Position numbers and translations under genes: made by a program. Below, piece by piece: positions 1 through 43,988 of a DNA stretch of 43,988 nucleotides. Position 1 is the stretch's first letter. Each line of letters opens with the position of its first letter. Origin of the DNA: a virus; the IMG/VR virus record IMGVR_UViG_3300012944_000032. The stretch is one strand, 5' to 3'. Below the pieces are notes generated by a model. It saw only the letters and a list, made by a program, of their open reading frames with translations. It ran no database searches and was not told where the DNA came from.

Positions 1-123
1 AGTCTCGAAAAATCAACAGGTTGCGGTCGGGCGGACGTTCTTTTCTGTTACGACACATTACGACACATTACGACACATTACGACACATTACGAGCGACGT
101 TTCGCGTAAGATTCGCTTCTGAG
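1..123. repeat. Left copy of the exact 123-bp terminal direct repeat
   Basis: Bases 1..123 (agtctcgaaaaatcaacagg...gattcgcttctgag) are identical to 43866..43988. Confidence 0.95.
48..97 (+). repeat. 10-bp tandem array, 4 perfect CGACACATTA units (51..90) plus a degenerate unit
   Basis: ttaCGACACATTACGACACATTACGACACATTACGACACATTAcgagcgacg. The period is exactly 10 bp. It lies inside the terminal repeat, so a second copy sits at 43913..43962. Confidence 0.95.
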
Positions 124-1125: not shown

Positions 1126-1154
1126 ATTATATCATGATTTGTGCGAAGTGTCAA
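1126..1154 (-). promoter_or_regulatory. Consensus sigma70 promoter with extended -10, reading leftward
   Basis: Minus strand reads TTGACA-cttcgcacaaatcatga(17)-TATAAT, with TGa immediately 5' of the -10. Upstream are (GCGAA)x3 and a T8 run. It is about 25-60 nt upstream of the candidate starts of 523..1095. Confidence 0.8.
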
Positions 1155-1534
1155 GCGCGAAGCGAAGCGAAAAAAAACCCAGGACCAGACTATCGTCTAG
1201 ATGCACGGCAGTTCATTCCGTGTCTCCGTTACTCTAGCTACATACTAGAGAGTGAATGATATCGCGTCACGAATAGTCCAGAGTCTAGGTATCCTCATGC
1301 TAGTCTTTTATTGCCTGTCGCGATAGACAGTAGGACTAGACTTACAGAGAACTTCCACCTAACTTTGCGAGCAATTCAGCGTATCGAACCTTGCGCCGTC
1401 GTCCCATACCCTACTACTACATGGGTCGTGCCAAGGCCCAAACCACAATATGTTGTGGTGTCAATCTGTGAAGACCCTATATGTTGGGGTGGCATATTAC
1501 CAAATTGTGATGCAACTAACGTCAATCGTAAGTT

Positions 1535-1965
1535 TGCACATTCTATCACTAAATTTCACATAAGAAATGATGTATAGTAGTGTGCAGTAGCAAGCAAAGA
1601 TGTAAATTACAATTCTAAATTGTACATTATGTCACCAGACTGCACACTTTAGCCAGTTTTGGCTCATTGTACACATTTGCATGTAATTGCACAATATTTC
1701 AATTGGCACGGCTTATGCCTATTACATATATGGTATGTGGCACATAGTTTGAACTGCATAAATCTGCACTGGCACGACTCTTGCCTTTACAGAATGACAC
1801 AGGGTTGCACTGGCATGATGTATGCTGTGTTCACTCTACTGCACATGTGCAATCCTGACTCAGCCGGTGTCATAGTGTGCAAGTCTTTCACATAGCTGCA
1901 CAATTCTTACTAAGAATTCATATCACAGGGGTATACATAGCTGCACGTAAGGTTCCATATGTGCA
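1535..1965. repeat. Dense array of TGCAC/GTGCA motifs in non-coding DNA
   Basis: At least 13 TGCAC/GTGCA occurrences counted by eye in about 430 bp. Includes the perfect palindrome TGCACATGTGCA (1840..1851), GTGCAC (about 1960), and ACATAGCTGCAC twice (1890..1901 and 1935..1946). Confidence 0.85.
1704..1826 (+). promoter_or_regulatory. Three to four GGCA-N7-TGCC dyads, equally readable as sigma54-like TGGCAC-N5-TTGC elements
   Basis: The sites are tTGGCACggcttATGCC (1704..1719), TGGCACgactcTTGCC (1770..1785, a perfect -24/-12 consensus), TGGCATgatgtATGCT (1811..1826), and a weaker TGGCACatagtTTGA (1738..1752). Confidence 0.5.
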
Positions 1966-2080
1966 CAAAATTTCCGGATATTAATCGTATTTGTGTCATC
2001 ATATTATTTAATCACATTTGTATGTTATCATTATTTAATTATTCATCAATTAAAAGCTGGTTCCATATGTGGTTCCATAC
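1951..2080 (+). repeat. GGTTCCATA(TGTG) repeated three times, flanking AT-rich direct repeats
   Basis: ggttccatatgtg occurs at 1951..1963 and 2059..2071, and ggttccatac at 2071..2080. Between them, ATCAT(AT)TATTTAAT occurs twice (about 1998..2013 and 2027..2040). Confidence 0.8.
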
Positions 2081-2167
2081 AACGTACTATGAATTATGAT
2101 GCTTTCAAAAAATGAAATCTTCAACGGCTACGCCGAGTTTTCCTAGGGTTTATGCGATGTTTACCTC

Positions 2168-2196
2168 TTGACAAACGGCTTCGCCGGGTGTATGAT
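2168..2196 (+). promoter_or_regulatory. Near-consensus sigma70 promoter for the rightward (late/structural) arm
   Basis: TTGACA(2168..2173)-aacggcttcgccgggtg(17)-TATGAT(2191..2196), about 45 nt upstream of the first plus-strand gene. Confidence 0.75.
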
Positions 2197-4764: not shown

Positions 4765-6375
4765 GTGGCTTTCACAACTGGAGAATGGAAACCTACTAGG
4801 AAACAAGAGATATTTCTATCTCTGCCATTATCAATTAAAGAAGCATTGTATGGTGGAGGAGCCGGTTCCGCCAAAACAGACGTTCTCTTAATCTACGCAT
4901 TAGTTCATAAATGGCATGAACATCCTGGGTTTAAGCAAGTGTTCATGCGTCGTACATTCCCTGAACTTCGTAATGAAGTGATTCCACGTAGTAGACAATT
5001 ATATCCTAAGTTTGGTGCAACATTAAATAAATCGGATATGGCATGGACATTCCCTGCGCCAGACCAAATTGGCGGAAGAGGATTGTCAAACGCGGGAGCA
5101 ATGATTTTCCTTGCACAGTGTGAGGACGAAAATGACGTACATAAATATGATTCTATGGAAATTAACTTATTTACTCCCGATGAGCTTACTTCTTTTCTTG
5201 AGTACATTTATTTGTACGTTGGGTTTACTCGTGTACGTACTAGTATCCCTGAACTCCCGGCAATAATTCGAGCCGCTGGCATGCCCGGTGGAGTAGGACA
5301 TACATTCACAAACAAAAGATTTGTATCACCGGCTAAGCCAGGCACTATCATTGTCGGACGTGGTGGAGTTAAACGCATTTATATTCACGCTACGTTAGCT
5401 GACAATCCTCACATCGACCCGGCCTACAGACAATCACTAGAAGCATTACCAGAAGCTGAAAAGAGAGCTAAGCTCTATGGGGACTGGAATGCTTATTCAG
5501 GTCAGGTATTTGACGAGTTCAGAGATAGAAGATATCCTGATGAACCAGATAATGCATTACATGTAATAGATGAATTTGAAATTCCAGCTTGGTGGCCTAG
5601 AATCCTCATTGGTGATTGGGGATTTGCGGCTATGACTTGGTTAGGTTGGGGAGCTATTAGTCCTAATAAAAGATTGTATATTTACAGAGAACAATCATGG
5701 ACTAAAACTAAGATTGAGGAATGGGCACCAATTGTTAGGGAATTGATTGATATTGACCATCCGAGAATGATTAAGTTTTGTAAATCTGCTGGCCAAGAGC
5801 ATGGTCAGGAACATACTATTCAGGAGCAGATTAGTGATGCTCTAGACTTCCCAATTGAGCTAACTAATAATAGTCCGGGCTCTAGAATCGCTGGCAAACA
5901 ACTAATTCATGAGTATATGAGATGGAGGTCAAAGCCAATCTCGATTAAGGAGAAAGCAGCATATAGTGAAGAGCACTCAATGTGGCTTCTTCGTAATAGA
6001 GGAATGAATGAATACAAGTCATACATGATGTCATTTATTGAGCCAGCAGAAGAATCTAATCTACCCAAGTTACAAATTTTTAGTTCCTGCAAGTTGCTCA
6101 TTGATGCTATTAAAGCATGTTCATACGACAAGAAGAAGATTGAGGATATTGCTGCATTCGCTGGTGATGACCCTATCGATGGACTTCGTTACTTGGTAGA
6201 TGCAGCAGAGAATTACTTTGAAATTGCGGCTGATGAATTCAAAAGGATTCAGAAGCAAGAAGAGTTAGTTCATAAGCTAAGCAGTGATAATGATTTTACT
6301 GCATTCTATAGACAGATGAGAACAGCTGAATCAGATGAATCATATAAACCAATTCGCATGTTTCATCATAGATAA
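4765..6375 (+). CDS. terL: Terminase large subunit
   Basis: GTG start. Walker A-like YGGGAGSAKTD. Nuclease-domain acidic motifs IGDWGF and GDDPIDGLRY. Located upstream of the portal. Confidence 0.88.
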   Translation: MAFTTGEWKPTRKQEIFLSLPLSIKEALYGGGAGSAKTDVLLIYALVHKWHEHPGFKQVFMRRTFPELRNEVIPRSRQLYPKFGATLNKSDMAWTFPAPDQIGGRGLSNAGAMIFLAQCEDENDVHKYDSMEINLFTPDELTSFLEYIYLYVGFTRVRTSIPELPAIIRAAGMPGGVGHTFTNKRFVSPAKPGTIIVGRGGVKRIYIHATLADNPHIDPAYRQSLEALPEAEKRAKLYGDWNAYSGQVFDEFRDRRYPDEPDNALHVIDEFEIPAWWPRILIGDWGFAAMTWLGWGAISPNKRLYIYREQSWTKTKIEEWAPIVRELIDIDHPRMIKFCKSAGQEHGQEHTIQEQISDALDFPIELTNNSPGSRIAGKQLIHEYMRWRSKPISIKEKAAYSEEHSMWLLRNRGMNEYKSYMMSFIEPAEESNLPKLQIFSSCKLLIDAIKACSYDKKKIEDIAAFAGDDPIDGLRYLVDAAENYFEIAADEFKRIQKQEELVHKLSSDNDFTAFYRQMRTAESDESYKPIRMFHHR

Positions 6376-27091: not shown

Positions 27092-28381
27092 ATGAAGATG
27101 GCAGCTAAAGCCGTTATCGTCGTTAACCCATCTGGACAAGCATTACCAAATGCTGAACCATATTTATCTATTGGTTCTCAGCATGAAACAATGCCGCTAA
27201 CTAATCAGGATGGATATTCACTTTCTGCACAGAGTTGGTCTGATGGTAACGGCTATCTTAAAGTTACTGCTAATGGATATCTCTCATATGTACAAATATT
27301 ATCTATTGATGGAGAGAATCAGAACATATTTGTTGGGGAGAATGGTACAGATGCTAATGCAGTAATTTTGCCTGGTTTGAAGACTGCGAGTGGTAACACT
27401 TTCCCTAGCTATCCCACAAGAGAAGAAGTTTGTAATGTCTTTTGTGGGTTTCAGGGTATCAATATTCTCACTAAACAGTATGGTTGGATTCCAGCATTCG
27501 GACCTGAATGTGGTGCATTAGATGATGAAGATACTATCTCATACTGTCAGCAAATGAAGGAGTTTGGATTTACCCATGTGGAAATGGACATTTCTTGGCA
27601 GTATTCAGAGCCAGATTTTAATTATCCTGTACGCGGTATGGACCTCGCTTATAATCTTGAAGAGGTCGCTAGACGGCTCGATTTAATTATTCGCCAAGGA
27701 ATGTTCGTTAAATTCTCTTTAGCTGGTGATGGAATGTCTGTCAATGACAATCCTCAACAGGGAGAATACAACGACCCACAAGGATGGACATATGGATTTC
27801 AATGGCTAATGAATAATGTACAAAGAATTATGTCATTCCTAAGTGATTATCAGGGACATGACTTAACTAAATTTTGTTTGTTTGTACCAGGATATGATGC
27901 TGTATTCTATGGCTGGGGAATTCCTAATGAGGTGCCTGACCAACAGCCGCAACGTGTGATTGATTTTGGTAATCATTTTAGGACTATTTTGCCAAATGGG
28001 TATCTTGGAATTGAACACTCTACTGGTAAAATTCCTGTTGGTGAATCTGGCAAGGATTGGTTAACAAATGGTCCTCTTGATTCTTATGATACATTACTAT
28101 CTGAATATGACCCATTTAATCTTCACTCCGATAATACCTGGCAAATCTTAAGCCGCTGTACCAGACCATATAATCGTCCATCAGACCAACCAGCTGATGA
28201 TGACACTAATCCTCCATATATCATTGAAGATTGTAGTCGTGGTAAAAGATTCTACATTATGTATGAATTGTTAACTTATCTCTGGGTTCGCAATGAAGTA
28301 AATTTAGAAGACTGTAATAATGCTTATGACTATTTTAAAGCAATGGCTCCATCTGCTACTTTGTGCATGGTTAAGTCTTAG
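27092..28381 (+). CDS. Hypothetical protein, possible glycoside-hydrolase-like enzyme (depolymerase or lysin candidate)
   Basis: SD AAGGAG. N-terminal beta-sandwich-like segment, then alternating beta/alpha segments (FTHVEMDISWQY...). The assignment is weak. Confidence 0.3.
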   Translation: MKMAAKAVIVVNPSGQALPNAEPYLSIGSQHETMPLTNQDGYSLSAQSWSDGNGYLKVTANGYLSYVQILSIDGENQNIFVGENGTDANAVILPGLKTASGNTFPSYPTREEVCNVFCGFQGINILTKQYGWIPAFGPECGALDDEDTISYCQQMKEFGFTHVEMDISWQYSEPDFNYPVRGMDLAYNLEEVARRLDLIIRQGMFVKFSLAGDGMSVNDNPQQGEYNDPQGWTYGFQWLMNNVQRIMSFLSDYQGHDLTKFCLFVPGYDAVFYGWGIPNEVPDQQPQRVIDFGNHFRTILPNGYLGIEHSTGKIPVGESGKDWLTNGPLDSYDTLLSEYDPFNLHSDNTWQILSRCTRPYNRPSDQPADDDTNPPYIIEDCSRGKRFYIMYELLTYLWVRNEVNLEDCNNAYDYFKAMAPSATLCMVKS

Positions 28382-29618
28382 CCTTCTTAGCCATGTACTT
28401 CTTGTACCCATCTAACGGCTCTCCTGCCAAATGAACCAGCCAATCCATATTACTTCCAATTCCGATTTTCTCGCGCTTAACCCAATTCATCTCAAGGAGA
28501 TTATCAATAATTTGGTCTAATGTAAAACTATTGAATATCCCATATCCACGCCATAATAGTTGTTTTCTCGACATCTCTTGACTATCAGCCGCTAACAGAT
28601 AGTCAATAACGGCTTTCGTACTAGCTGCCATTGGGTCTGGTCCTCTCCCATCAACAGTCCTCTTACTTGAATAAACAAGATTAGTTACTTTCTCAATTGA
28701 TTCTTCCATCGACAGTTCAGTTATCTCACCGTTAAAATCAAAATCAGCTAGTGTCAAACACATAGCTACTTTCAATACATGGTCTGGAACCCTATTCAAA
28801 AATCCAGTTTTATCATGTGTTTGACCACTACGCCACTTACGGCGCCATGTATTGAATAGTTCTCTTGCTTCTATTGATGGGGTTAATTGTCCTTTAAGAG
28901 ATGATATTTTACTAAGATGTGGTACGTACTTTGGCGATATATAATTATCAAATTTATCCCCATCACTTTTATCATCACCATCATCACTTAATAGGTCCAC
29001 ATTCTGTGACCTTTTTTCTTCGTAAACAATGAGATTCCTACCAATGTATCCCCCTTCGATATTCGCTTGGGGAATTGAATCATAAAAGTGAGCTGGTGAA
29101 CTACCGAATAATGCTGTAATATAAGGCTTCTTAAGCTTTTCAGCACCATCACCCTTAAGAAGATTGACCCATTCCGAGTTATAATTTCCATCGAACAGGT
29201 CCGTGAGAATCTGTAAGGCATCAGGGTCAGCTATGATGGCTGATGATAATTCGCCATTAATAATATACATTCTACTATCATCAATTGGTTTTTTACCTTC
29301 TACAGTCTTTGTAGTAGCTCCTTCTTTGACGATAGCTTGAATTGAGCTTCTTCCTTTAATGACTCTTGTAACTCCTGCATTTGTTACTAACTGAGCCGCT
29401 CGATTGATTGGAAATCCCTTACCAAGTCCAGACTCTCCTAGCAACATGATGTATAAGTTTGGCTTATATATCAAGTCACCTTTGAGCGTCTTCAGACTAT
29501 AGTTGTTACCGGCTGCTGCGCTAATGCAACTGATGAAACTCCACCATAGCCACGATTGGGGCGTCTCGACGTGTGAACACTCTGATACTAATGAATCTAT
29601 CCAGTTAAGTTGCCGCAC
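28371..29618 (-). CDS. P-loop NTPase, probable replicative helicase/primase-associated protein (VirE/DUF3987-like)
   Basis: GTG start. Walker A LLGESGLGKG near residue 60. Candidate Walker B MYIINGE. Last gene of the replication arm. Confidence 0.5.
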   Translation of the reverse strand: MRQLNWIDSLVSECSHVETPQSWLWWSFISCISAAAGNNYSLKTLKGDLIYKPNLYIMLLGESGLGKGFPINRAAQLVTNAGVTRVIKGRSSIQAIVKEGATTKTVEGKKPIDDSRMYIINGELSSAIIADPDALQILTDLFDGNYNSEWVNLLKGDGAEKLKKPYITALFGSSPAHFYDSIPQANIEGGYIGRNLIVYEEKRSQNVDLLSDDGDDKSDGDKFDNYISPKYVPHLSKISSLKGQLTPSIEARELFNTWRRKWRSGQTHDKTGFLNRVPDHVLKVAMCLTLADFDFNGEITELSMEESIEKVTNLVYSSKRTVDGRGPDPMAASTKAVIDYLLAADSQEMSRKQLLWRGYGIFNSFTLDQIIDNLLEMNWVKREKIGIGSNMDWLVHLAGEPLDGYKKYMAKKAKT

Positions 29619-29627
29619 GATTTAGCT

Positions 29628-29765
29628 TCAAGAAGTCTCACGCAATTTATCTCTTAGTTTCATAACCAAGTCAAATGCTCGTCGTTGCATATCGAGTGGA
29701 TATTGACTACCTGTCATGCCAATGATGATAATGTTAACTTCTTCTTTACTTAGTTCTATGTTCAT
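29628..29765 (-). CDS. Small ORF (45 aa), below the track cutoff
   Basis: My translation is MNIELSKEEVNIIIIGMTGSQYPLDMQRRAFDLVMKLRDKLRETS. Fills an otherwise empty gap. Confidence 0.4.
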   Translation of the reverse strand: MNIELSKEEVNIIIIGMTGSQYPLDMQRRAFDLVMKLRDKLRETS

Positions 29766-29922
29766 TCTTTCTCCTATCAGCAAATCTAGCTAGTTTGTCA
29801 TATAAAGTATCTATTAATTCTTCAGCTTCATCAGAACTCAAATTGAATGCATCTCTGATGGTAACTACGGCTATGCCAATGGCTGTTACAATTGCCATGT
29901 CAGATTCATCATCATTTATCAT
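29746..29922 (-). CDS. Small ORF (58 aa), below the track cutoff
   Basis: My translation is MINDDESDMAIVTAIGIAVVTIRDAFNLSSDEAEELIDTLYDKLARFADRRKNEHRTK. Overlaps its neighbours as elsewhere in this arm. Confidence 0.4.
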   Translation of the reverse strand: MINDDESDMAIVTAIGIAVVTIRDAFNLSSDEAEELIDTLYDKLARFADRRKNEHRTK

Positions 29923-30139
29923 TTCTGTTCTGTCTCCCTCTTTGCTTCGCTAATGCAAATAGTTTCTCGAAATAGTTTATTGGTAATTGATATGCTGAGC
30001 CAACAACCAATACATGAAATCCATTCTTATCGTATAAATCTTCTAGTTCTCCTGGATAAAACCATTCGTTAGTATCTAGCTGCTGTCCAAAAGCCCAGTT
30101 CTTTGCTTCATTGTAATTGCCTGCTATGATGCAAATCAT
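29912..30139 (-). CDS. Hypothetical protein (75 aa)
   Basis: ORF in the packed early operon. Confidence 0.55.
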   Translation of the reverse strand: MICIIAGNYNEAKNWAFGQQLDTNEWFYPGELEDLYDKNGFHVLVVGSAYQLPINYFEKLFALAKQRGRQNRNDK

Positions 30140-30142
30140 CTA

Positions 30143-30301
30143 TCACTCATGTTTCCACGGACATCTAAACTCATCACCAATTTTAGGTAATAGTTTACCA
30201 GTCCATTTATACCAATGTCCGCAATCAAGAATGAGCCAATAACCATTACTAGTATCATTTTTCTGTACGTCAATAATCTCTTGTAAGCTAGGCTCTGTCA
30301 T
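30143..30301 (-). CDS. Small ORF (52 aa)
   Basis: My translation is MTEPSLQEIIDVQKNDTSNGYWLILDCGHWYKWTGKLLPKIGDEFRCPWKHE. Confidence 0.4.
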   Translation of the reverse strand: MTEPSLQEIIDVQKNDTSNGYWLILDCGHWYKWTGKLLPKIGDEFRCPWKHE

Positions 30302-30473
30302 TTTCTTTTAGTTTTTTAATGATTGTGTGAAGATTAATCTTTATTTCATTAGTATTATGAGGTATGATTTCTCTTTTTGAATTAATCATAGTAGATTCAA
30401 ATACTAATTTATCAATTTCCCCAAGCATTACTTTTATACGATGTATGTACCAATCAGTACCCGGCTCGCTCAT
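30288..30473 (-). CDS. Hypothetical protein (61 aa)
   Basis: ORF in the packed operon. Confidence 0.5.
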   Translation of the reverse strand: MSEPGTDWYIHRIKVMLGEIDKLVFESTMINSKREIIPHNTNEIKINLHTIIKKLKENDRA

Positions 30474-30643
30474 CTTCGTTCAACCTCCACATTAACATCC
30501 AGTTTCTCAAATAGTATCTTTAATGCATAGTATACCGAATCAACATTTGGGGCATCATCTATAGTTACTATGAATTTACCATCTACAGATATATCAATAT
30601 TGTAATTATTTTTGGCGTGAATAATCACTTTAACTATACTCAT
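30470..30643 (-). CDS. Small ORF (57 aa)
   Basis: My translation is MSIVKVIIHAKNNYNIDISVDGKFIVTIDDAPNVDSVYYALKILFEKLDVNVEVERR. ATGA overlap with the downstream gene. Confidence 0.45.
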   Translation of the reverse strand: MSIVKVIIHAKNNYNIDISVDGKFIVTIDDAPNVDSVYYALKILFEKLDVNVEVERR

Positions 30644-30652
30644 ATTTTCATC

Positions 30653-30841
30653 TCAAAATGGAATATCATCGTCCTCCAAAAATGGATATGATGTCTTGGT
30701 TAATCTATCTTCAGCCGCTTTTAAAGATACATCTAATTGTGTATCTAATTCTTCAAATGAATTGGCTTCTATCCTGTCTCTTGACTTGAATAAGCCTGCT
30801 TCCCATATTACAATTACAACTTCGATTCTTATATCATTCAT
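30653..30841 (-). CDS. Hypothetical acidic protein (62 aa)
   Basis: ORF in the packed operon. Confidence 0.5.
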   Translation of the reverse strand: MNDIRIEVVIVIWEAGLFKSRDRIEANSFEELDTQLDVSLKAAEDRLTKTSYPFLEDDDIPF

Positions 30842-31013
30842 ATTCTATTTCATCAATTTCAATAATTACTTTATTTTTGCAATTAGTACATTCATATTGA
30901 CTTAGTAATTTAGTTGGCATATTTTCAGCTGCCATCCTATCAGAATGTTTCATATACACTTTAATGCTTTTGAATGCATGACTACAATTACCACAAACAA
31001 TCCTAATATTCAT
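30834..31013 (-). CDS. Small zinc-ribbon protein (59 aa)
   Basis: My translation is MNIRIVCGNCSHAFKS...YECTNCKNKVIIEIDEIEYE (CxxC...CxxC). ATGA overlap with the polymerase stop. Confidence 0.5.
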   Translation of the reverse strand: MNIRIVCGNCSHAFKSIKVYMKHSDRMAAENMPTKLLSQYECTNCKNKVIIEIDEIEYE

Positions 31014-33466
31014 ATTTTAATCGGTCTCATCTCAGAATAATTAGTGTCACTAAATTCAATTGAACATGGAATAGTTAACATGTAATCACGTTTCAAGCTA
31101 CAGCCAGAGAAATCAATTGGAACTTCAAAATGTTTCTTCATCAGCCTAGCATACGGTTCCCAGTTGTTAGCGGGAACCTGCATCTTTAGGCTATCATGGT
31201 CTTCACTTAGCCACATATGCTCTACATCGCCATTCAATTCATCTTCAATAGTTAATCCTGCACCTTGCACAAGATGTGCTACTGTTCTTTGCGGTATGTT
31301 TGCATATCCTTCTTTATAGAGCTGAGTGTCCATTCTTCCATTGAAGATACGAAGACCGCCATACGGGTCCACAATCGCTCTTGTGCTCTGGAGACAATCA
31401 ATGATATCCTTATGGAACTTATTTCTAATCCTTGGCGATGCGCCATGAAAAAGTTCAAGCATCTGACCAGAACGCCATTCAGATATAGACATAGGTATAT
31501 CGAACTTCTGAGCATCAGTATTGAAATTAACCATAAACTCATTTTTGCCCATGTCGTAATTCCCAGCGTGCCTAGTCTTTTTTCCACAGAACCTCTCAGG
31601 ACCATCCTTTTCCATTATGTCAACGACGGGAACAATACCAGTCGTCAGGACTAATTCTCTAGTATATCCAAATATCATTCCTGCCGTTCGTCTATGTATG
31701 TCAACCTTATCAAACGCCTCTAATAATTCCCAATCTTCTGCTAATACTGCCACGACCCTAGCTTCAGCTTGGCTGCTATCGGCTCCGATAATGACGTATC
31801 CTGGGTCGCAGATAAACATGCTTCGTATATCTTTGGCAAGTCTGCCATGTTTAGCGATAGTATGAAATGCCAATCCAATTTTCTTTGGTCTGACAGGCTT
31901 TTTGAGAATTCCAGTAGAGCTTCTGCAAGTCTCCGTTGCTGATATGCTGAAAGATGTTTTACACCTCCCATCATAATCTGGAGAGAAGCTGATGTTCCTT
32001 GACTTTTGAGTACGTATTCTTCGTTCTTCAAGGATGTTCGTAAGAATGTCTTTTTTCTCTTTTGTTTTAGCATGATTCCCCAGTAGTGCTACAATTGTGT
32101 CTTCAGATGTTGGATTGCGTTTCATAAATTTAAACTTCATTTCTTTATATAATAATTCAAACATCTGAGGATAGCTAGCTACATTTACTTCATGCCCTAC
32201 GAGTTCTGTTATCTTGTCATGAACTGCCTTAGCCATCTCTCCATACTTCTTAGATAGCTCTTTCTTTCTTGGCAAATCAATGAGGAAGCCGTTGTTCTCC
32301 ATCTTCAAATAGAATTTATGTTTCCTCATCATATACTTATAATAATAGTTCAACAGCTTTAATCCATAAACATCGCTTAAATCAATTAAGTCTTGTTCCT
32401 GTACCTCATCAATTTCATATGTAACGGCACAATCCTTAGCATTATATTTGAATAACTGTTCAACTTTCTGCTTGCCGAACTTAAACTCTTTGCCTTCCTC
32501 TTTGTAATAAGGCTCTCTTGTCCATAAAGACGATTGAACGTGGAGCTTCTTTTGTGGTAATTCTGGGAAGATAACTCTTGTCTTAATGAGGGTGTCGCTG
32601 TACAAGTTTGGGCATTGAAAACCAATAAGATTAAGTTTGAACTCGTCATACTTGAAGTTTTGCCCAATAATACGTAGCCGTCTGAGCTGGCTGTCAATCA
32701 ATCTCCATATTTCGTCAAGTTCATAGTCTCCCATATCAGTGAGCTTATGCTTACCAATAGTCCTAAGTAAAGGCACAGAGATTGCGTGGTGCCTGTTGAA
32801 AGCAAAGCCAACACAAACTGGCACGCAATTAATAGATTCGATATCAACCGACGCTTTGTCGAAGTTTTTGTATTTGTCGAAGAATCTGTAGAGGTCAAGC
32901 GAATTGTGACATATATCGAGTTCTTTATTCGGTAGAGATAACTGCCTACTTTTGGATTCTTCAACAGCCCGTGCAATATCTGATTCAATGAGCTTGATGT
33001 ACGTGTATTCAAGTCCACCTTTGTCACCTCGGTTAAACAGAGCGGCTGGATGTATAGTTGGGACTACCTTTGTAACGCCATCTTTAGCCAGGAGAATACT
33101 CCCGCGATAATTAAGTATGCCAGAATATCCAGTAATATGATTAAGAGCAGTATCCCCAATAGCCAAGATACACTTGGGTCTTCTCGGTTTGATTTCATCA
33201 TTCCAGAGATTCTCCGATTCCTTATTTATGTCAACACCTATTAAATGTAACTTCGTTAAGTCATTCATAGGTGGTTGATACTTGCATACATTAGTTATAT
33301 ATACATCACTTCGTCGAATATTTGCTTTTCTTAAACAATCATCAAATATTTCACCGGCTGGACCTGAGAATGGTACACCTGTCTCATGCTCATGTTTACC
33401 AGGTGCCTCTCCCACTGCCATTAAATCTGGCTCTAATGGACCGATCCCTCCTACGTATCTAGGCAT
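31010..33466 (-). CDS. Family A DNA polymerase with 3'-5' exonuclease and an N-terminal family-4 uracil-DNA glycosylase-like domain
   Basis: UDG4 motifs VGEAPGKHEHETGVPFSGPAGEIF and TIHPAA. Exo I motif VDIESIN. Pol motif A GADSSQAEARVVA. Motif C-like EDHDSL. Confidence 0.9.
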   Translation of the reverse strand: MPRYVGGIGPLEPDLMAVGEAPGKHEHETGVPFSGPAGEIFDDCLRKANIRRSDVYITNVCKYQPPMNDLTKLHLIGVDINKESENLWNDEIKPRRPKCILAIGDTALNHITGYSGILNYRGSILLAKDGVTKVVPTIHPAALFNRGDKGGLEYTYIKLIESDIARAVEESKSRQLSLPNKELDICHNSLDLYRFFDKYKNFDKASVDIESINCVPVCVGFAFNRHHAISVPLLRTIGKHKLTDMGDYELDEIWRLIDSQLRRLRIIGQNFKYDEFKLNLIGFQCPNLYSDTLIKTRVIFPELPQKKLHVQSSLWTREPYYKEEGKEFKFGKQKVEQLFKYNAKDCAVTYEIDEVQEQDLIDLSDVYGLKLLNYYYKYMMRKHKFYLKMENNGFLIDLPRKKELSKKYGEMAKAVHDKITELVGHEVNVASYPQMFELLYKEMKFKFMKRNPTSEDTIVALLGNHAKTKEKKDILTNILEERRIRTQKSRNISFSPDYDGRCKTSFSISATETCRSSTGILKKPVRPKKIGLAFHTIAKHGRLAKDIRSMFICDPGYVIIGADSSQAEARVVAVLAEDWELLEAFDKVDIHRRTAGMIFGYTRELVLTTGIVPVVDIMEKDGPERFCGKKTRHAGNYDMGKNEFMVNFNTDAQKFDIPMSISEWRSGQMLELFHGASPRIRNKFHKDIIDCLQSTRAIVDPYGGLRIFNGRMDTQLYKEGYANIPQRTVAHLVQGAGLTIEDELNGDVEHMWLSEDHDSLKMQVPANNWEPYARLMKKHFEVPIDFSGCSLKRDYMLTIPCSIEFSDTNYSEMRPIKI

Positions 33467-33672
33467 CCTTTTTTCTCTACATCTGTCATTCGCTTAATGA
33501 TAGATTCAGGTAATGAATTAACAACTTTATTATGTAGATGATTTATCCAGGAACATACATCACACAGATATGGATATGGTGTTTCATTGTCCCATTCTCT
33601 ATTTTTCCTACTAAGGCAACGGGAGCATAAATCGCTATATGCCTTAGAGATTCTATCTTGATGGCTTGGCAT
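33451..33672 (-). CDS. Small Cys-rich (zinc-binding) protein
   Basis: CSRCLS...YLCDVCSW. Confidence 0.55.
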   Translation of the reverse strand: MPSHQDRISKAYSDLCSRCLSRKNREWDNETPYPYLCDVCSWINHLHNKVVNSLPESIIKRMTDVEKKGCLDT

Positions 33673-33869
33673 TATTTAATTTGAATAACCACACCATCAG
33701 GCGTCTCGTGCATCTTAACAATCTGTTTAGATATATGAACTCTATCATCAGTAATATCAATAACGTGAGCAACTTTTAACCTATTAAATAAATTGTCCAT
33801 TATAACATTTAATTTAATTTCTATACTATCAAATAGATTCATAATCAGTTTAGCCTCTTCTACAGTCAT
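33672..33869 (-). CDS. Hypothetical protein (65 aa; the track ORF extends to 33944)
   Basis: The ATG at 33869 forms an ATGA overlap with the stop of the upstream gene. The longer form would overlap it by 79 nt. Confidence 0.5.
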   Translation of the reverse strand: MTVEEAKLIMNLFDSIEIKLNVIMDNLFNRLKVAHVIDITDDRVHISKQIVKMHETPDGVVIQIK

Positions 33870-34141
33870 ATTTCTATGTCCTCCAATTGCATTTCTTTTC
33901 TCTTCAGCCGCACCCATGCAATAGCATCTCTCATACTTGAGCAACGCCTTAATTGCTTTTCGTGAGTTTTGAACCAGCTAGCTAACAATAAATCTTGAGA
34001 TACAGAACCAATCGAGCGATTGAGAGCTTTAGCTGTCTTTTCTATTGTCCAATCGTTCTCATCCTTTAGTTGATGTATGTGGAACTTGTGAATATCAATA
34101 GCTCTCTCTATCCAGCTCTGCTTAACTGGTGGCTGTCTCAT
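33866..34141 (-). CDS. ParB-like helix-turn-helix DNA-binding protein
   Basis: WTIEKTAKALNRSIGSVSQDLLLASW resembles the ParB/Spo0J HTH pattern (xxAxxLGxSxxxVSxxLxL). Confidence 0.5.
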   Translation of the reverse strand: MRQPPVKQSWIERAIDIHKFHIHQLKDENDWTIEKTAKALNRSIGSVSQDLLLASWFKTHEKQLRRCSSMRDAIAWVRLKRKEMQLEDIEI

Positions 34142-34524
34142 CTCCGCCGTTCAAACCTGAATCCGTCTTGTTGAATAACTTCTTCTTTATCTTGTCCTCT
34201 CTCTGCTGCTATCTCTTCTTTACTACGACCTTGATTGTCCCTAGTGCCTCTGCACTTTGGATACTGTTTGCATCCCCAGAATGAACCATGCGGTCCTTTA
34301 CGTGATGCCATCTCCCCATCACATTCAGGACATTTAACATTCTCTAATATGGGCCGCTTTGTTATATCAGCCATATTATAATGGCTAAATAACCATGTAG
34401 CCAGTTCAATATAGTTAGTCCAACCAAGTGGTGCATTATCATTATGAACTTCAGATAACTTAAATGCTAATGCCCATTCTCTTTTACTTTCAATCTGCTC
34501 TTTGACGTATGTGAAATCTTCCAT
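34138..34524 (-). CDS. Protein with a topoisomerase-type C4 zinc ribbon
   Basis: CPECDGEMASRKGPHGSFWGCKQYPKCRGT matches the zf-C4_Topoisom pattern. Confidence 0.6.
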   Translation of the reverse strand: MEDFTYVKEQIESKREWALAFKLSEVHNDNAPLGWTNYIELATWLFSHYNMADITKRPILENVKCPECDGEMASRKGPHGSFWGCKQYPKCRGTRDNQGRSKEEIAAERGQDKEEVIQQDGFRFERRR

Positions 34525-34680: not shown

Positions 34681-34896
34681 TTATCGTCCCTCACATGCGA
34701 TGCATGCATTTGCAGTCATAACAGCCTCCCTAACCTTACGAATAGCGGCTGATTGGTCTGCTGATGGTACCGTATTATCTAGAATAGAACCAGCTAATAC
34801 TCGTGCAGCGTCCCTAATTTCCTGATACTGCTGAATCTGTTCAGGTCTAGGAGCGTGATACGTAAACCAGTTTTCTAAATCATTCATTGAAATCAT
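34681..34896 (-). CDS. Conserved phage protein of unknown function (71 aa)
   Basis: The FTYHAP...PEQ...Y..IRDAA...AIRKVREAVMTANACIA pattern recurs in many phages, from memory. I cannot name the family. Confidence 0.6.
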   Translation of the reverse strand: MISMNDLENWFTYHAPRPEQIQQYQEIRDAARVLAGSILDNTVPSADQSAAIRKVREAVMTANACIACEGR

Positions 34897-39580: not shown

Positions 39581-40087
39581 TTATCTCTTCACATCTATGA
39601 AATCTTGCCAACTAATTACATTGCATTCATAAATTTCTGCAAGTTTGCTGATTTTAATATTAAATTTACCTACCCATTCCAGAAATTCATTTGAACCAAC
39701 CACACTAATCTCTTTTATATTAAATAATGTTTCTATTTTTGCATACTCAGACCTATATCCTGCTATATGAATGGCTACTTTACCCCACTGTTTAATAATT
39801 CCAGGCATGTTGTAGTAGTTGCTGTAGTTGTTGTTGTAGTAGTAGTTGCTGTATTTGTAGCTGTAATTGTAGCTGTAATTGTTGTTGTAGCTGTAGTAGT
39901 TATAAGAATATATGCCAGAATCTTCTGATTTAACTAGGTGTGGCCCTTCAAATTTAGACCATTTATAATCTTGATTTTCTGAAAATAAAGTTTCATCATT
40001 TCTAATACTATTTCTCCAATTTCTATATCCGGTAACCGCCTCTGATTCATCTATCTGTTTGAATTCTATAAAATCTGGCAAGCACAT
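39581..40087 (-). CDS. Conserved-type phage protein carrying a roughly 37-aa Asn/Tyr/Ser low-complexity insert
   Basis: GIYSYNYYSYNNNYSYNYSYKYSNYYYNNNYSNYYNM lies between VTGYRNWR... and IKQWGKVAIHIAGYRSEYAKI. The DNA at about 39808..39905 is an imperfect GTAGTT/GTAGCT repeat. Confidence 0.65.
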   Translation of the reverse strand: MCLPDFIEFKQIDESEAVTGYRNWRNSIRNDETLFSENQDYKWSKFEGPHLVKSEDSGIYSYNYYSYNNNYSYNYSYKYSNYYYNNNYSNYYNMPGIIKQWGKVAIHIAGYRSEYAKIETLFNIKEISVVGSNEFLEWVGKFNIKISKLAEIYECNVISWQDFIDVKR

Positions 40088-42279: not shown

Positions 42280-42606
42280 TTACTTTGCTACTTCAACTTT
42301 CGAGTCTGTTGATGCGATGCGAGGTGAATTGAACGCTGTCATACTCTCATAAGTATCTAGAATGAGAGATTCAAGCTGCCCAATCTGTGACTCTTCACTC
42401 GGACGAAGAAAAAAGAACGGCTTGCTTTCATCATTTCTCTTCACAATTGATGCAGGAAATAACACGAATAAACCTTTTTCCTTATCATCACAGATTGTGA
42501 ATCCAACCATGTGGAAGCCGCTAAGGAATCCCTCTTCAAATTCAATAGCTGCTTTCGCTACTCGATTGCCTTTCCTCATCAAGAAAGGTTCTACCTTGAT
42601 TTTCAT
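42280..42606 (-). CDS. SpoVG-like nucleic-acid-binding protein
   Basis: RVAKAAIEFEEGF...ICDDKEKGLFVLFP...ILDTY parallels SpoVG (RMRAIASITLD...IDGNNGLFVAMP...VLNEY). Confidence 0.5.
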   Translation of the reverse strand: MKIKVEPFLMRKGNRVAKAAIEFEEGFLSGFHMVGFTICDDKEKGLFVLFPASIVKRNDESKPFFFLRPSEESQIGQLESLILDTYESMTAFNSPRIASTDSKVEVAK

Positions 42607-42665: not shown

Positions 42666-43304
42666 CTAGAGCTTACTTTTGAATGTTAGTGCTGCCGGAT
42701 TGAATGGTGACGCTATCGCGTCAGGTTTCTTTACTTCCACCTGAACTGCTTTTGTCTCTGTTACTGGAGTGTTGAACGTAACAACCTTGAGGTTTGCTTC
42801 TGTTGCTTTACGCTCAAGATTGTTAATCATCTCCTTAACAGTCTCTTCGTCAATGCCTGCATTGAGCAATTGCATTCTCATCTTATCCATCTTGCTCATT
42901 CGTTCTTTACGAACTTTTACGGCATTGATAGCATCTGAAGTGACTACGTCTGGTCCTGAAGGAGTAATAACCCACTCCTTCTTACCTGACTTAGCTTTTC
43001 TCTCACGCAATTCATCATCGGCAGCGGCTAGAGTCGCCTTTGCTTCAAATGCAATCTGAGAGAGATTTTCTCTGTGCTCTCTTAACTGAGTTATATCCAT
43101 GTCCTTAACAAAGATTTTACCTCTGTTATAGAACTGAGCATATAACTCTTCTTGTGGTGTCATGTACCCCCAATCAATGAATATTCCACGTTTGATTGCT
43201 ACTAAACCTCGAAGATAATGACTTAACGAAGACTCCACATTGCATACTCTGCAATATATTGTTAAGTCATCATTTTCGAAATTGCAATCCTTACAGTGCC
43301 ACAT
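42666..43304 (-). CDS. Protein with an N-terminal RanBP2-type zinc finger
   Basis: WHCKDCNFENDDLTIYCRVC fits W-x-C-x2-C-x3-N-x6-C-x2-C exactly. The rest is helical and charged. Confidence 0.6.
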   Translation of the reverse strand: MWHCKDCNFENDDLTIYCRVCNVESSLSHYLRGLVAIKRGIFIDWGYMTPQEELYAQFYNRGKIFVKDMDITQLREHRENLSQIAFEAKATLAAADDELRERKAKSGKKEWVITPSGPDVVTSDAINAVKVRKERMSKMDKMRMQLLNAGIDEETVKEMINNLERKATEANLKVVTFNTPVTETKAVQVEVKKPDAIASPFNPAALTFKSKL

Positions 43305-43306
43305 TA

Positions 43307-43510
43307 CTAATACTTGATGATGTTCTTATTTGATTTCTGAGCAATAGAAGCGAGAACTTCTGAGTATGCTGATGTAAATGCTAGCTTCTGTTTGTCCGAT
43401 GTTAGTTCGCGATTGACCTTATCTCGATTGAGCCTACTTCTGTGCCTCCTGCGGAGGCAATCTTTAGCCTTTGCTTTTTCTTGATTCTCCTTTGAATTGA
43501 AAAACTTCAT
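43307..43510 (-). CDS. Small basic protein (67 aa), first gene of the early arm; DNA-binding regulator candidate
   Basis: Internal ATG of track ORF 43307..43693. Sequence is MKFFNSKENQEKAKAKDCLRRRHRSRLNRDKVNRE... The upstream extension is only a translation of the repeat array. Confidence 0.55.
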   Translation of the reverse strand: MKFFNSKENQEKAKAKDCLRRRHRSRLNRDKVNRELTSDKQKLAFTSAYSEVLASIAQKSNKNIIKY

Positions 43511-43554
43511 GTTACTCTTTACTGACTGATGGTGTCCACTAAAGTAGACAAAAC

Positions 43555-43614
43555 GTGTCGGAGCGTGTCGGAAAGTGTCGGATTGTGTCGGAACGTGTCG
43601 GAAAGTGTCAAAAC
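43555..43614 (-). repeat. 10-bp phased array: five CCGACAC cores plus one degenerate unit
   Basis: Plus strand reads GTGTCGGAgc GTGTCGGAaa GTGTCGGAtt GTGTCGGAac GTGTCGGAaa GTGTCAAAac. Inverted relative to the CGACACATTA array. Confidence 0.95.
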
Positions 43615-43664
43615 GTGCATCCGTCCGCAAGTTGTTGTCCCACTTGGGGTTGCGCCACAAACGG

Positions 43665-43693
43665 ATTATACAACACTCTCTGCCGAAAGTCAA
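43665..43693 (-). promoter_or_regulatory. Near-consensus sigma70 promoter for the leftward early arm
   Basis: Minus strand reads TTGACT-ttcggcagagagtgttg(17)-TATAAT. The repeat array lies in the predicted transcribed leader. Confidence 0.75.
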
Positions 43694-43865
43694 CCCCTAT
43701 CCCTTCCCCTGTGGGTAGTGTTTGGTTTCTTGTATTTCTTATTATATATTTTTATATATATTAATAAGAAGAACAACAGAAACCCAGCACGGAAACCCGA
43801 GAGCCCCAAAAAGGGAGGGGGGTAGGCTATGCCAGAGAGGGGTATCGTCGGCCGAAACGGCGATA

Positions 43866-43988
43866 AGTCTCGAAAAATCAACAGGTTGCGGTCGGGCGGA
43901 CGTTCTTTTCTGTTACGACACATTACGACACATTACGACACATTACGACACATTACGAGCGACGTTTCGCGTAAGATTCGCTTCTGAG
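43866..43988. repeat. Right copy of the exact 123-bp terminal direct repeat
   Basis: Identical to 1..123. Implies a 43,865-bp genome unit. Confidence 0.95.
43913..43962 (+). repeat. Second copy of the CGACACATTA x4 array, within the right terminal repeat
   Basis: Identical to 48..97. Confidence 0.95.

Follow-up and report, generated by a model that had tools for sequence, protein, structure and literature searches.

Two short repeat arrays in the genome of a phage with an MCM-like DUF3987 helicase bracket an AT-rich block and the early promoter, which raises the question whether this locus is an origin of replication, an operator of the enclosed promoter or a site of another kind. To our knowledge, origins have been established experimentally in very few phages, and the many uncultured phages with helicases of this type are not among them. 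The element described here, located in a window of 43,988 nt (the whole stretch of DNA that was analysed), is a precise and conserved origin candidate of approximately 410 bp.

Anatomy of the two-array element

The initial annotation, made from the letters of this DNA, had described inverted, 10-bp-phased CGACAC arrays around an AT-rich core and an early promoter. This description was confirmed by TRF as well as by repeat and strand searches (Table 1). In array A, the GTGTCGGA units begin at 43555, 43565, 43575, 43585 and 43595, i.e. with a period of exactly 10, and the degenerate unit (GTGTCAAA) begins at 43605; TRF delimits the array at 43552..43617 (period 10, 6.6 copies, score 83). On the early-gene strand it reads TTCCGACAC. 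The perfect units of array B occupy 43913..43952, with CGACAC at 43916, 43926, 43936 and 43946, and are followed by a degenerate fifth unit, TTACGAGCGA (TRF: 4.6 copies, 100% match, score 92). Since the CGACAC core lies on the minus strand in array A and on the plus strand in array B, the arrays have opposite orientations. Inverted similarity runs past the arrays (arms 43558..43637 and 43879..43958, 80 nt, 71% complementary), and the likeness of A and B themselves is confined to the core, with different spacers, which makes a long-range RNA duplex between the arrays unlikely. At the score threshold used, the genome has no period-10 array other than A and B. CGACAC was counted 16 times in the window compared to 7.4 ± 2.9 expected (0 of 100 shuffles reached 16), four of these copies belonging to a second copy of array B at 51..90 in the assembly overlap. 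Judged from the repeat pattern, the 6 + 5 units, spaced by exactly 10 bp, would constitute multiple phased repeated sites as in iteron-type origins.

Table 1. Positions of the two-array element, its neighbouring features and two candidate protein genes in the window.
Feature	Position	Strand	Description
Array A (array 2 when counted along early transcription)	43555..43614	-	5 perfect and 1 degenerate 10-bp unit
Array B (array 1)	43913..43962	+	4 perfect TTACGACACA units and a degenerate fifth unit
Early promoter of the minus-strand early and replication genes	43665..43693	-	TTGACT-17-TATAAT, near-consensus sigma-70
Leader box CAACAACTTGCGGA	43624..43637	-	Family consensus CAAC(G/A)ACTTACAGG
Mirror copy of the leader box	43876..43895	+	AATCAACAGGTTGCGGTCGG; adjoins array B; also matches IHF consensus WATCAANNNNTTR
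Small palindrome GTCCAC-TAAA-GTAGAC	43534..43549		Between array A and the first start codon
Pure A/T block	43739..43767		29 nt; candidate unwinding element or flexible hinge
Palindrome arm, promoter side	43694..43738		Pyrimidine-rich on the plus strand
Palindrome arm, distal	43768..43830		Purine-rich on the plus strand
Assembly overlap	1..123		Identical to 43866..43988; assembler k-mer, not a biological repeat
DUF3987 (SF6, MCM-like) helicase gene	28371..29618	-	Candidate self-loading initiator-helicase; Walker A, C-terminal winged helix
177-aa protein gene	523..1056	-	Own perfect promoter at 1154..1126; upstream of array B

The ends of the window overlap by exactly 123 nt, a length equal to the assembler k-mer, so that the unit genome has 43865 bp, and array B is duplicated at 48..97 through this overlap. 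The overlap had been taken for a terminal repeat holding array B, which was the basis for a proposed packaging role. In a second, independent assembly of this virus (k141, 43996 nt), the genome is cut elsewhere and the element is located mid-contig; the overlap is thus an assembly artefact, which led us to reject both a physical terminal repeat and packaging at array B. In the k141 assembly, array B contains exactly one 10-bp unit fewer, a behaviour expected of a slippage-prone iteron array.

The A/T block is the longest A/T run of the genome (the next longest has 18 nt) and contains the genome's least stable 25-bp and 40-bp windows. It sits at the centre of an imperfect palindrome, in which C/G runs occur. 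The DNA fold of this palindrome has a z of -3.85 in the window compared to dinucleotide shuffles, and only -1.2 with arm-preserving shuffles, the conservative control (median of -2.6 over 26 loci). An easily melted AT-rich region, as in iteron origins, is therefore present, but 140–155 bp away from the arrays and not adjacent to them.

The hexamers of the early promoter (TTGACT, 43693..43688; TATAAT, 43670..43665; 17 nt spacer) match the consensus at 11 of 12 positions. Relative to the predicted start, array A is located within the transcribed leader at about +47 to +104, array B at about -258 to -297. An equivalent rightward promoter was found in all 25 loci scanned (9–12 of 12 positions matching), while a mirror-image leftward promoter was found in none of them. 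A divergent or invertible promoter was rejected, as the direction is the same in all 25 loci and no recombinase was found. In 15 of 27 loci, the distance from the start of the -35 hexamer to that of the leader box downstream is 55–57 nt. The IHF consensus is present at 43876..43888, within the mirror copy of this box, but its genome-wide count corresponds to chance and its conservation in relatives is patchy. Elements of the form GTGTCCA-N5-TGGACAC, resembling the small palindrome next to array A, were seen by eye in five related loci (L006, L007, L008, L031 and L038). With regard to RNA features, Rfam gave no match and tRNAs were not found, and a terminator scan of the window revealed none on the strand of the upstream gene. 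In several relatives, hairpin-plus-T-run terminators are apparently located 3' of the upstream gene, as judged by eye, so that array 1 is probably not co-transcribed there.

The divergence of minus-strand early and plus-strand late genes lies close to the element, as does the minimum of the cumulative GC skew, which is confounded with gene orientation and hence not independent evidence. A second motif-rich non-coding region (1155..2167) represents an alternative cis-acting site.

Conservation and co-variation in related phages

Comparison with related phage genomes had been proposed in the initial annotation, and the two-array layout was found to be kept in about 25 uncultured relatives, which share the order array 1, approximately 150 bp, palindromic AT block, promoter, array 2 and early genes. 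The layout is retained at 49–82% helicase identity, and a similar one, with 11-bp units, is found in a clade with 35% helicase identity. An A/T run of at least 16 nt, followed by a promoter within 120 nt, is present in 30 of the 33 loci scanned (window included). The search for cultured relatives or published descriptions gave no DNA match in a phage collection, and protein searches gave only distant matches (<30% identity) or none; in a genome collection of 185,579 species genomes, no relatives were found.

The repeat cores vary from genome to genome (e.g. GTGTCGGAA, CTCGGAGGAA, TCGTTTG, TGCTCG and ATCTGAG), although the cores of array 1 and array 2 agree inside each genome. The two arrays share 42, 21, 20 and 7 6-mers within a genome compared to 0–6 across genomes with different cores, and their consensus sequences match at 5–8 of 10 positions in inverse orientation versus 3–6 of 10 in direct orientation. 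Such co-varying cores are the pattern that would be expected of a co-evolving, element-encoded binding protein. Different cores in the same frame provide natural specificity-swap controls, and whatever the function of the element, whether origin or operator, the co-varying arrays could guide the search for a new, sequence-specific DNA-binding protein.

Array placement is symmetric with respect to the AT block, the distance from inner edge to block being 156 ± 19 bp for array 1 and 141 ± 16 bp for array 2. The distance between promoter and array 2 offsets that between AT block and promoter (r = -0.68, p = 0.003), a compensation which argues that the reference point of the arrays is the AT block and not the promoter.

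Candidate proteins and alternative functions

The reading that we tentatively prefer is that the two-array element is the replication origin of the phage, built like a SaPI origin and, more loosely, like the iteron origins of lambda and plasmids. It is favoured by arrays that are real, unique in the genome and inverted, by an AT block that is both stability minimum and palindrome centre, by the retention of the layout in relatives with co-varying cores and a set spacing between arrays and AT block, by the presence of a DUF3987 ATPase with a winged helix, for which SaPI Rep is a precedent, by the one-unit difference of array B between assemblies and by the location near the divergence of early and late genes. 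Of the earlier origin reading, the architectural part has thus been strengthened by the conserved layout, the array co-variation, the stability minimum and the symmetric placement, while the binding proteins proposed with it and the packaging rationale were not upheld.

In such an origin, a phage-encoded, sequence-specific protein would coat each array on one helix face, five to six units at 10 bp corresponding to roughly one oligomer per array, and the two array complexes would face one another over approximately 330 bp. Transcription from the strong, host-type early promoter, which is part of the right arm, would proceed outward from the AT block and leave negative supercoiling in its wake, which might help to open the (TA)n core or to extrude the imperfect palindrome. 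The MCM-like DUF3987 helicase would then be loaded in both directions. Since array A is part of the transcribed leader, the same complex would probably throttle early transcription once the binding protein accumulates, and the origin possibly doubles as an early-promoter switch. Origin activity, a binding protein of the phage and a coupling to transcription are what we infer from the arrangement as a whole.

Annotation scans and co-variation identified no array-binding protein, and an O-, RepA- or DnaA-like initiator was not found in scans of the flanking and early genes with Pfam, PHROGs and NCBIfam. When 14 conserved proteins or domains were compared with the array k-mer distance in 12 genomes, none diverged in step with the arrays (maximum rho 0.29–0.32). 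DUF3987 proteins have been classed as SF6 replicative helicases with a C-terminal wHTH (PMC4889955). The C-terminal winged helix of the DUF3987 protein encoded in the window has a confidently predicted structure, and Foldseek gave weak matches to MCM and Orc1/Cdc6; the protein, whose C-terminal domain comprises approximately residues 325–415, is a candidate for a self-loading initiator-helicase. With regard to the winged helix as a possible reader of the arrays, no clear specificity pattern was seen between it and the array cores, and its predicted third helix (FTLDQIIDNLLEM) is acidic.

The genes adjoining the arrays encode the 177-aa protein and variable small proteins. In most related loci, a homolog of the 177-aa protein is encoded upstream of array 1. 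The 546 homologs are unannotated, the C-terminal two-thirds are highly conserved, and the confident AF2 model (pLDDT 85) as well as the sequence gave no match in the PDB; although a candidate array binder, the protein showed no co-variation with the arrays. A 212-aa protein contains a RanBP2-type zinc ribbon, a coiled coil and a C-terminal FDPSSLxF motif. Its zinc ribbon was rejected as specificity determinant, being nearly the same in two relatives (L001 and L004) with different array cores. A 108-aa protein is SpoVG-like with a Pfam E-value of 0.14 as sole support, and it gave no PDB profile match. Two binding proteins had been put forward in the initial annotation. For the small basic protein (43307..43510), a general partnership with the arrays was not borne out, as recognisable relatives are encoded 3' of array 2 in only 6 of the 24 loci examined (an Arg-rich family with the motif [KR]x[FY]F[NK]S...), and it was rejected as universal binder for lack of BLAST homologs in the relatives. 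The protein described as ParB-like HTH (33866..34141) has only a weak match to sigma-70 region 4 (E-value 0.12). A coding repeat at 39808..39901 was rejected as a lambda-like intragenic origin, the gene that hosts it having no homolog in the relatives.

The origin reading is weakened by the lack of an initiator among the proteins scanned and of co-variation in any of the 14 proteins or domains, by the acidic third helix and missing specificity pattern of the DUF3987 winged helix, and by the distance of approximately 14 kb between the DUF3987 gene and the arrays. Moreover, the arrays are located about 150 bp from the AT block, far beyond the spacing in lambda or SaPIs, 10-bp units are short for classical iterons, and region 1155..2167 is available as an alternative site. 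The fixed position of the leader box and the location of array A in the leader also fit a purely transcriptional role.

Such a role, the main rival reading and somewhat less probable than an origin, would be that of a DNA-looping operator of the early promoter without origin function. An early or middle phage protein would bind both arrays, which, being inverted, would align in parallel when the DNA folds at the (TA)n hinge; the loop of approximately 330 bp would enclose the promoter, the array at +47 to +104 would block elongation, and early transcription would be shut off or autoregulated. Looping or repression of this kind has precedents in gal, deo, lambda OL-OR and R1 ParR-parC. The near-consensus promoter between the arrays in all 25 loci scanned, array A inside the leader, the box 55–57 nt past the -35 start in 15 of 27 loci and the possible IHF site at 43876..43888 are in line with an operator, and arrays co-vary as operators do with their repressors. 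In R1 parC, two five-repeat sets with a helical-turn period flank and repress a promoter (PMC2241845). However, neither array overlaps or abuts the -35 or -10 hexamer (nearest edges at about +47 and -258), and the distance that array 2 maintains is the one to the AT block and not the one to the promoter. Searches of the conserved neighbours yielded no protein of repressor type (HTH, RHH), the small basic protein of the first gene is encoded 3' of array 2 in only 6 of 24 loci examined, and the melting minimum of the genome inside a palindrome would be left unexplained. For a lytic phage, an early-transcription switch in the form of such an operator would be unusually elaborate.

A further reading, which appears improbable, combines both functions in a single dyad-symmetric nucleoprotein machine, in which a fast co-evolving DNA-binding protein of new fold couples early transcription to replication initiation. 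The protein, for which the always-adjacent 177-aa protein or the zinc-ribbon/coiled-coil 212-aa protein would be candidates, would coat the two inverted, 10-bp-phased arrays about 150 bp on either side of the (TA)n hinge. Folding of the DNA would then join the arrays and shut off the promoter between them, and the centre would be opened or exposed so that the MCM-like helicase can be loaded. We know of no phage origin or operator for which this architecture has been described.

Packaging and partition roles are unlikely. In a packaging site (pac or cos), which is very improbable here, a small terminase subunit would bind both arrays and the DNA would be cut in or near the central palindrome. 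Models are P1 pac, with hexamer clusters on either side of the cut, and lambda cosB, with repeats and an IHF site. The symmetric repeats around a central site and the IHF-like site resemble these, and seven related contigs (L008, L011, L062, L036, L041, L043 and L053) begin or end in the region. However, the terminal overlap of the window equals the assembler k-mer (123) and the k141 assembly is cut elsewhere, and the fragment contigs mostly end at the promoter or array 2, where strain-variable early genes begin, or at C/G runs of the palindrome, so that these ends are likely assembly breaks. A terminase site would be expected in or directly upstream of the terminase genes, whereas the large terminase gene (4765..6375) is about 4.4 kb away, with two promoters and at least seven ORFs between. 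For pac, a separate cluster of TGCACA motifs (1535..1967), located on the stretch from the arrays to the late operon, is the better candidate.

Hardly any likelihood is given to a plasmid-like centromere (parC/parS type), at which an adaptor on the arrays would segregate a plasmid prophage. The two repeat sets with helical-turn period around a promoter resemble R1 parC (PMC2241845), but no ParM, ParA, TubZ, ParR or ParB family was detected with Pfam in 49 window proteins, i.e. the products of the conserved early genes and the proteins encoded on the side of the arrays that faces the early genes, nor did ORFs 1311..1577 and 1659..1895, which fall into the non-coding region at the opposite side, give a match. 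An integrase or protelomerase was not found among the proteins scanned, the gene content looks lytic, and no relative was found in the 185,579 species genomes. A protelomerase target (telRL) was rejected, as the 49 proteins contain no protelomerase or tyrosine-recombinase domain and the palindrome is imperfect.

Comparison with known systems

An adjacent partition operon is part of the R1 parC-ParR system, which encodes ParM and ParR. In the phage, no ParM, ParA, ParR or ParB was found in the flanking and early genes with Pfam, PHROGs and NCBIfam. Both systems have two sets of about five repeats with roughly one helical turn per unit, and in R1 these flank and repress a promoter (PMC2241845). 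The R1 repeats are direct, 11 bp long and 39 bp apart, closely flanking the promoter core, whereas the phage arrays are inverted and approximately 300 bp apart, with inner edges at about +47 and -258.

The origins of lactococcal phage c2, T4 and T7 are intergenic and combine an early promoter with AT-rich DNA, and transcription contributes to initiation, the transcript entering the unwinding region or priming synthesis. The phage promoter, in contrast, is directed outward from the AT block, with a repeat array on each side. Iteron origins of lambda (ori-lambda with O) and plasmids (P1 oriR with incC/incA; pSC101) share with the element phased, repeated initiator sites and an AT-rich unwinding region, the dependence on or overlap with a nearby promoter and a specificity that diverges between relatives; ori-lambda is transcriptionally activated and the repA promoter lies inside the P1 incC iterons. 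Classical iterons, however, are 17–22 bp long and form one array directly beside the AT-rich region, often inside the initiator gene, and an O-, RepA- or DnaA-like initiator was not found in the phage. In SaPIs, lambda and plasmids, the initiator gene contains or adjoins the origin, and here the candidate helicase gene is located approximately 14 kb away.

The closest resemblance is to the SaPI origins. The Rep helicases of SaPIs, including those of SF6 type, read iterons of 5–6 nt via a C-terminal winged-helix domain, and the iterons are located on both sides of an AT-rich centre in opposite directions (PMC9371898). The same arrangement of two short, directional and opposed repeat sets flanking an AT-rich centre is found in the window, with 6 + 5 units compared to 6–12 repeats in all in SaPIs. 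In both, the repeat sequence varies between related elements and an AAA+ helicase with C-terminal winged helix is encoded by the element itself, the SaPIbov1-type Rep being classed as SF6 like the DUF3987 proteins (PMC9371898, PMC4889955). Differences concern the position of the phage arrays, which stand 140–155 bp off instead of adjoining the AT block directly, the much smaller length of this block (29 bp), the strict 10-bp period of the units, the sigma-70 promoter and conserved leader box inside one arm, and the helicase gene, immediately downstream of which the SaPI origin is located. Binding of the winged helix to the phage arrays is also not supported by co-variation. If origin activity is confirmed, the combination of SaPI-type opposed iteron sets with a self-loading helicase would be extended to virulent phages, in a geometry with arrays about 150 bp from the melting site and an early promoter inside the origin. 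The likeliest reading of the element is an origin, a known kind of site, in an unusual geometry.

Anatomy of the element and its genome

Re-derivation of repeat coordinates, tandem repeats and motif counts confirmed the two inverted CGACAC arrays as the initial annotation had described them, with a period of exactly 10 bp in array A and array B alike. At the score threshold used, these are the only period-10 arrays of the genome. CGACAC occurs 16 times (7.4 ± 2.9 expected; 0 of 100 shuffles reached 16), four of these copies being array B counted again in its duplicated copy. The inverted similarity continues about 25 nt inward from the arrays, forming 80-nt arms that are 71% complementary. The A/T block between the arrays is the longest A/T run of the genome (29 nt, the next 18 nt) and its least stable 25-bp and 40-bp window (−20.1 kcal/mol vs a mean of −32.1 ± 2.8). 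An imperfect palindrome is centred on it; folded as DNA, this palindrome scores z = −3.85 relative to dinucleotide shuffles. Arrays, A/T block, palindrome arms, early promoter and leader box are together referred to as the element.

Features of the element, in the order of early transcription, and genes discussed in the text
Feature	Position	Strand	Description
177-aa gene	1056..523	−	perfect sigma-70 promoter TTGACA-17-TATAAT with TG, 1154..1126
Array B, perfect units	43913..43952	+	n = 4, TTACGACACA; then a degenerate fifth
Mirror copy of conserved box	43876..43895		IHF consensus also fits
C-rich arm			
Pure A/T block	43767..43739		
G-rich arm			
Early promoter	43693..43665	−	TTGACT-17-TATAAT, 11/12 matches
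Leader box	43637..43624	−	CAACAACTTGCGGA
Array A, perfect units	43555, 43565, 43575, 43585, 43595	−	n = 5, GTGTCGGA; array at ~+47..+104 from predicted start
Array A, sixth unit	43605	−	GTGTCAAA
Small palindrome	43549..43534		
First start codon	43510	−	
212-aa early protein	42666..43304	−	
108-aa protein	42280..42606	−	
71-aa protein	34681..34896	−	
128-aa protein	34138..34524		
Family A DNA polymerase	31010..33466	−	
Large terminase	4765..6375	+	

Nucleotides 1..123 duplicate 43866..43988 exactly, and the overlap goes no further. An independent assembly of the same virus (ENA contig k141_3893493, L145, 43996 nt) holds the entire element mid-contig, within the record part 27720..34253, and is identical to the window across 4266 nt save for one 10-nt gap, corresponding to one array B unit fewer. 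The lengths of both contigs fit an overlap equal to the assembly k (43996 = 43855 + 141; 43988 = 43865 + 123), 123 and 141 being the top k values in common MEGAHIT settings. The terminal repeat of the window is therefore an assembly artefact, and the claim that array B sits inside a physical terminal repeat had to be abandoned. The one-unit difference between the two assemblies is a copy-number polymorphism of array B by slippage and shows that arrays vary naturally in copy number.

The window is a complete phage-like genome, assembled as a circle with a unit length of 43865 bp. Plus-strand genes extend from about 2239 to 28381. The early and replication genes are located on the minus strand, from 43510 down to 28371, and include those for an SNF2 helicase, a PD-(D/E)XK nuclease, an AAA_24 ATPase, a DUF669 protein, a UDG-PolA fusion and a DUF3987 ATPase. 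In the fusion, the family A DNA polymerase carries an N-terminal domain of the uracil-DNA-glycosylase superfamily; a topoisomerase-I-type zinc ribbon is found in the separate 128-aa protein. The 71-aa protein gave a Pfam match to the Acb2/Tad1 hairpin domain (PF24729, E 2e-12) and may act as a sponge for the cyclic nucleotides of defence signalling (anti-CBASS/anti-Thoeris). Since no DNA match was found among 50,697 phage records, the closest protein matches share <30% identity and no relatives were found in 185,579 species genomes, the phage belongs to an uncultured, virulent-looking clade.

Conservation, co-variation and geometry in relatives

Relatives were recovered from IMG/VR with the SNF2 helicase, the 177-aa protein and the DUF3987 protein as queries (L numbers denote uncultured viral contigs or loci). 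Following the direction of early transcription, the counterpart of array B is termed array 1 and that of array A array 2. In this comparison, which the initial annotation had proposed, the feature order was kept at 49–82% helicase identity. An A/T run of at least 16 nt with a promoter within the next 120 nt was found in 30 of 33 loci scanned (window counted). A promoter directed rightward, from the A/T block toward array 2, matched 9–12 of 12 positions in all 25 loci scanned, and its leftward mirror image was present in none of 25. In 15 of 27 loci, the leader box begins 55–57 nt past the first base of the −35 hexamer. Palindromy of the A/T-block arms exceeds composition in arm-preserving shuffles (median z −2.6; 14 of 26 loci below −2), the window arms reaching only −1.2 under this stricter control. 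Promoter, box and an array of 11-bp units are also kept in a clade at only 35% helicase identity, with inverted copies about 350 bp upstream.

The conserved box, CAAC(G/A)ACTTACAGG, sits at about +20 of the early transcript in the window and at the matching position in L029, L031, L036, L038, L039, L041 and others. It does not depend on the array core, and related motifs, CTTAC(A)GG, recur in both arms. The box may act as a host-factor site or, in the leader RNA, as an RNA element. When all are read in one gene orientation, the A/T block has a central A5 homopolymer in the window, L031 and L036 and a T5–7 homopolymer in L027 and L033; the palindrome centre appears to have flipped in the course of evolution. 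The replication module also has a relative at the end of the 205-kb contig L144 (ENA ERZ25039591 contig_25407, 204787 nt), which may reflect either concatemeric long-read assembly or integration.

Within one genome, both arrays bear the same core in opposite orientation. The cores are, among others, GTGTCG(G/T)AA (window, L003, L006, L008 and L035), CTCGGAGGAA (L031), ACTCGGAGCA (L030), (C/G)TCGTTTG (L004), CTGCTCG (L022), ATCTGAG (L009) and GTGGACG (L044). Array 1 and the reverse complement of array 2 have 42 6-mers in common in L009, 21 in L022, 20 in L004 and 7 in L001, compared to 0–6 across genomes with different cores. Consensus 10-mers of the two arrays match at 5–8 of 10 positions in inverse and at 3–6 of 10 in direct orientation, and the spacers between the cores show no match. 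Since the cores match but the spacers do not, the sequences speak for a protein that recognises double-stranded DNA rather than for base-pairing of one array with the other. The TCG(G/T) centre is kept in most cores, so that the core specificities look like drifting variants of a single recognition mode.

In the 17 loci in which geometry was measured, the inner edges of array 1 and array 2 lie 156 ± 19 bp and 141 ± 16 bp from the A/T block, respectively. The −35 hexamer is found 31 to 98 bp from the A/T block and 38 to 119 bp from array 2. The latter two distances compensate (r = −0.68, p = 0.003, relatedness uncorrected), their sum having a standard deviation of 16 vs 28 expected under independence. 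The arrays are thus placed about the A/T block with dyad symmetry, the promoter being carried along in one arm. It is mainly due to this geometry that arrays and A/T block are regarded as one machine and not as a promoter-proximal operator beside an unrelated AT tract.

Candidate binding proteins

No homolog of the 67-aa first-gene product was detectable by BLAST, and only 6 of the 24 loci examined have a member of a recognisable small basic protein family after array 2. The 177-aa protein belongs to a large unannotated family (546 homologs); its AF2 model is confident (pLDDT 85), and no PDB relative was found by sequence or by fold. Its gene is located directly upstream of array 1 in most relatives, with an apparent terminator hairpin after it in many of them; in L042 and L061, the late operon and no arrays come after the homolog. 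The conserved 212-aa early protein contains an N-terminal RanBP2-type zinc ribbon (PDB profile matches to Nup153/Nup358 zinc fingers, E ~1e-4), a coiled coil and a conserved C-terminal FDPSSLxF motif that resembles a peptide for docking onto a host replication protein. The zinc ribbon is almost the same in L001 and L004, in which the array cores are different; the 212-aa protein evolves faster than its neighbours. The 108-aa protein, highly conserved in relatives, gave a weak Pfam match over nearly the full length to SpoVG (E 0.14), whose fold binds nucleic acids, and no match in a PDB profile search. In a Mantel-type comparison of array k-mer distance with 14 proteins or domains in 12 genomes, no correlation above 0.32 was obtained.

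Origin, operator and packaging readings

The favoured reading of the element, at somewhat less than an even chance, is an iteron-type replication origin of unusual, dyad-symmetric and promoter-containing geometry. The interpretation given in the initial annotation is upheld in part. An origin is favoured by the unique melting minimum of the genome, which lies inside a palindrome, by two opposed phased arrays symmetric about this minimum, and by the co-evolving array specificity with slippage polymorphism in one array. A helicase of the right class is encoded, the element is close to the point of early/late gene divergence, and a strong promoter directs transcription outward from the AT block, comparable to the transcription of gidA away from E. 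coli oriC, which stimulates initiation. Counting against an origin, no initiator for the arrays was found among the proteins examined, the arrays are far from the AT block, their units are short, and the DUF3987 helicase gene is about 14 kb away.

The main rival, a looping operator for the early promoter, is considered somewhat less probable. The promoter is enclosed between the arrays, an arrangement for which R1 parC provides a precedent (PMC2241845), but its core is not overlapped by either of them. One array lies within the leader and the box position is locked downstream of the promoter; array position, however, tracks the AT block and not the promoter, and no repressor was found. Both roles are compatible and a dual role is plausible, P1 and pSC101 replicons pairing iterons with initiator-gene promoters.

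That the element is a packaging site is unlikely, the terminal repeat being an artefact and the contig ends in this region having a technical explanation. Moreover, the large terminase gene is 4.4 kb away, and a separate TGCACA cluster lies between the arrays and the late operon. Readings as a partition site, a protelomerase target or an invertible switch each lack a defining feature in the proteins and loci scanned.

The region of the TGCACA cluster (1155..2167) comprises about 1 kb between diverging consensus promoters (minus-strand 1154..1126 and plus-strand 2168..2196), with no credible ORF, Rfam match or tRNA. TTGCACA/CTGCAC motifs are dispersed and frequent in it, 10 of the 28 TGCACA copies of the genome lying within 1535..1967. 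The motif is unrelated to the array core, and at the corresponding place relatives have either TGCACA (L039, L048) or different motifs. This region may be a packaging or late-regulation site.

With regard to the origin reading, the DUF3987 protein (415 aa, Walker A motif GESGLGKG) gave an AF2 model that is poor across the ATPase core and contains a confidently predicted C-terminal helix-helix-helix-hairpin winged helix (residues 331-397, pLDDT 84–91). For this domain, Foldseek found matches in the winged helices of QsrR, PadR and MarR (probability 1.0, E ~5e-3); for the whole chain, it gave weak matches to MCM subunits and Orc1/Cdc6 (E 8e-3 to 2e-2). The predicted fold is in line with published work that places phage DUF3987 proteins among the SF6, MCM-like replicative helicases carrying a C-terminal wHTH (PMC4889955), and DNA unwinding was shown for a related DUF3987 protein (PMC11724360). 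SaPI Rep helicases include the SF6 type, and a winged helix of this kind reads 5–6-nt iterons (PMC9371898). In the window protein, the predicted third helix of the domain is acidic (FTLDQIIDNLLEM), and its changes across relatives do not visibly follow those of the array core. Among described architectures, the SaPI origin comes closest to the window element: its 6–12 iterons lie half on each side of an AT-rich centre, the sides being oppositely directed, and the Reps are proposed to load themselves as two hexamers (PMC9371898).
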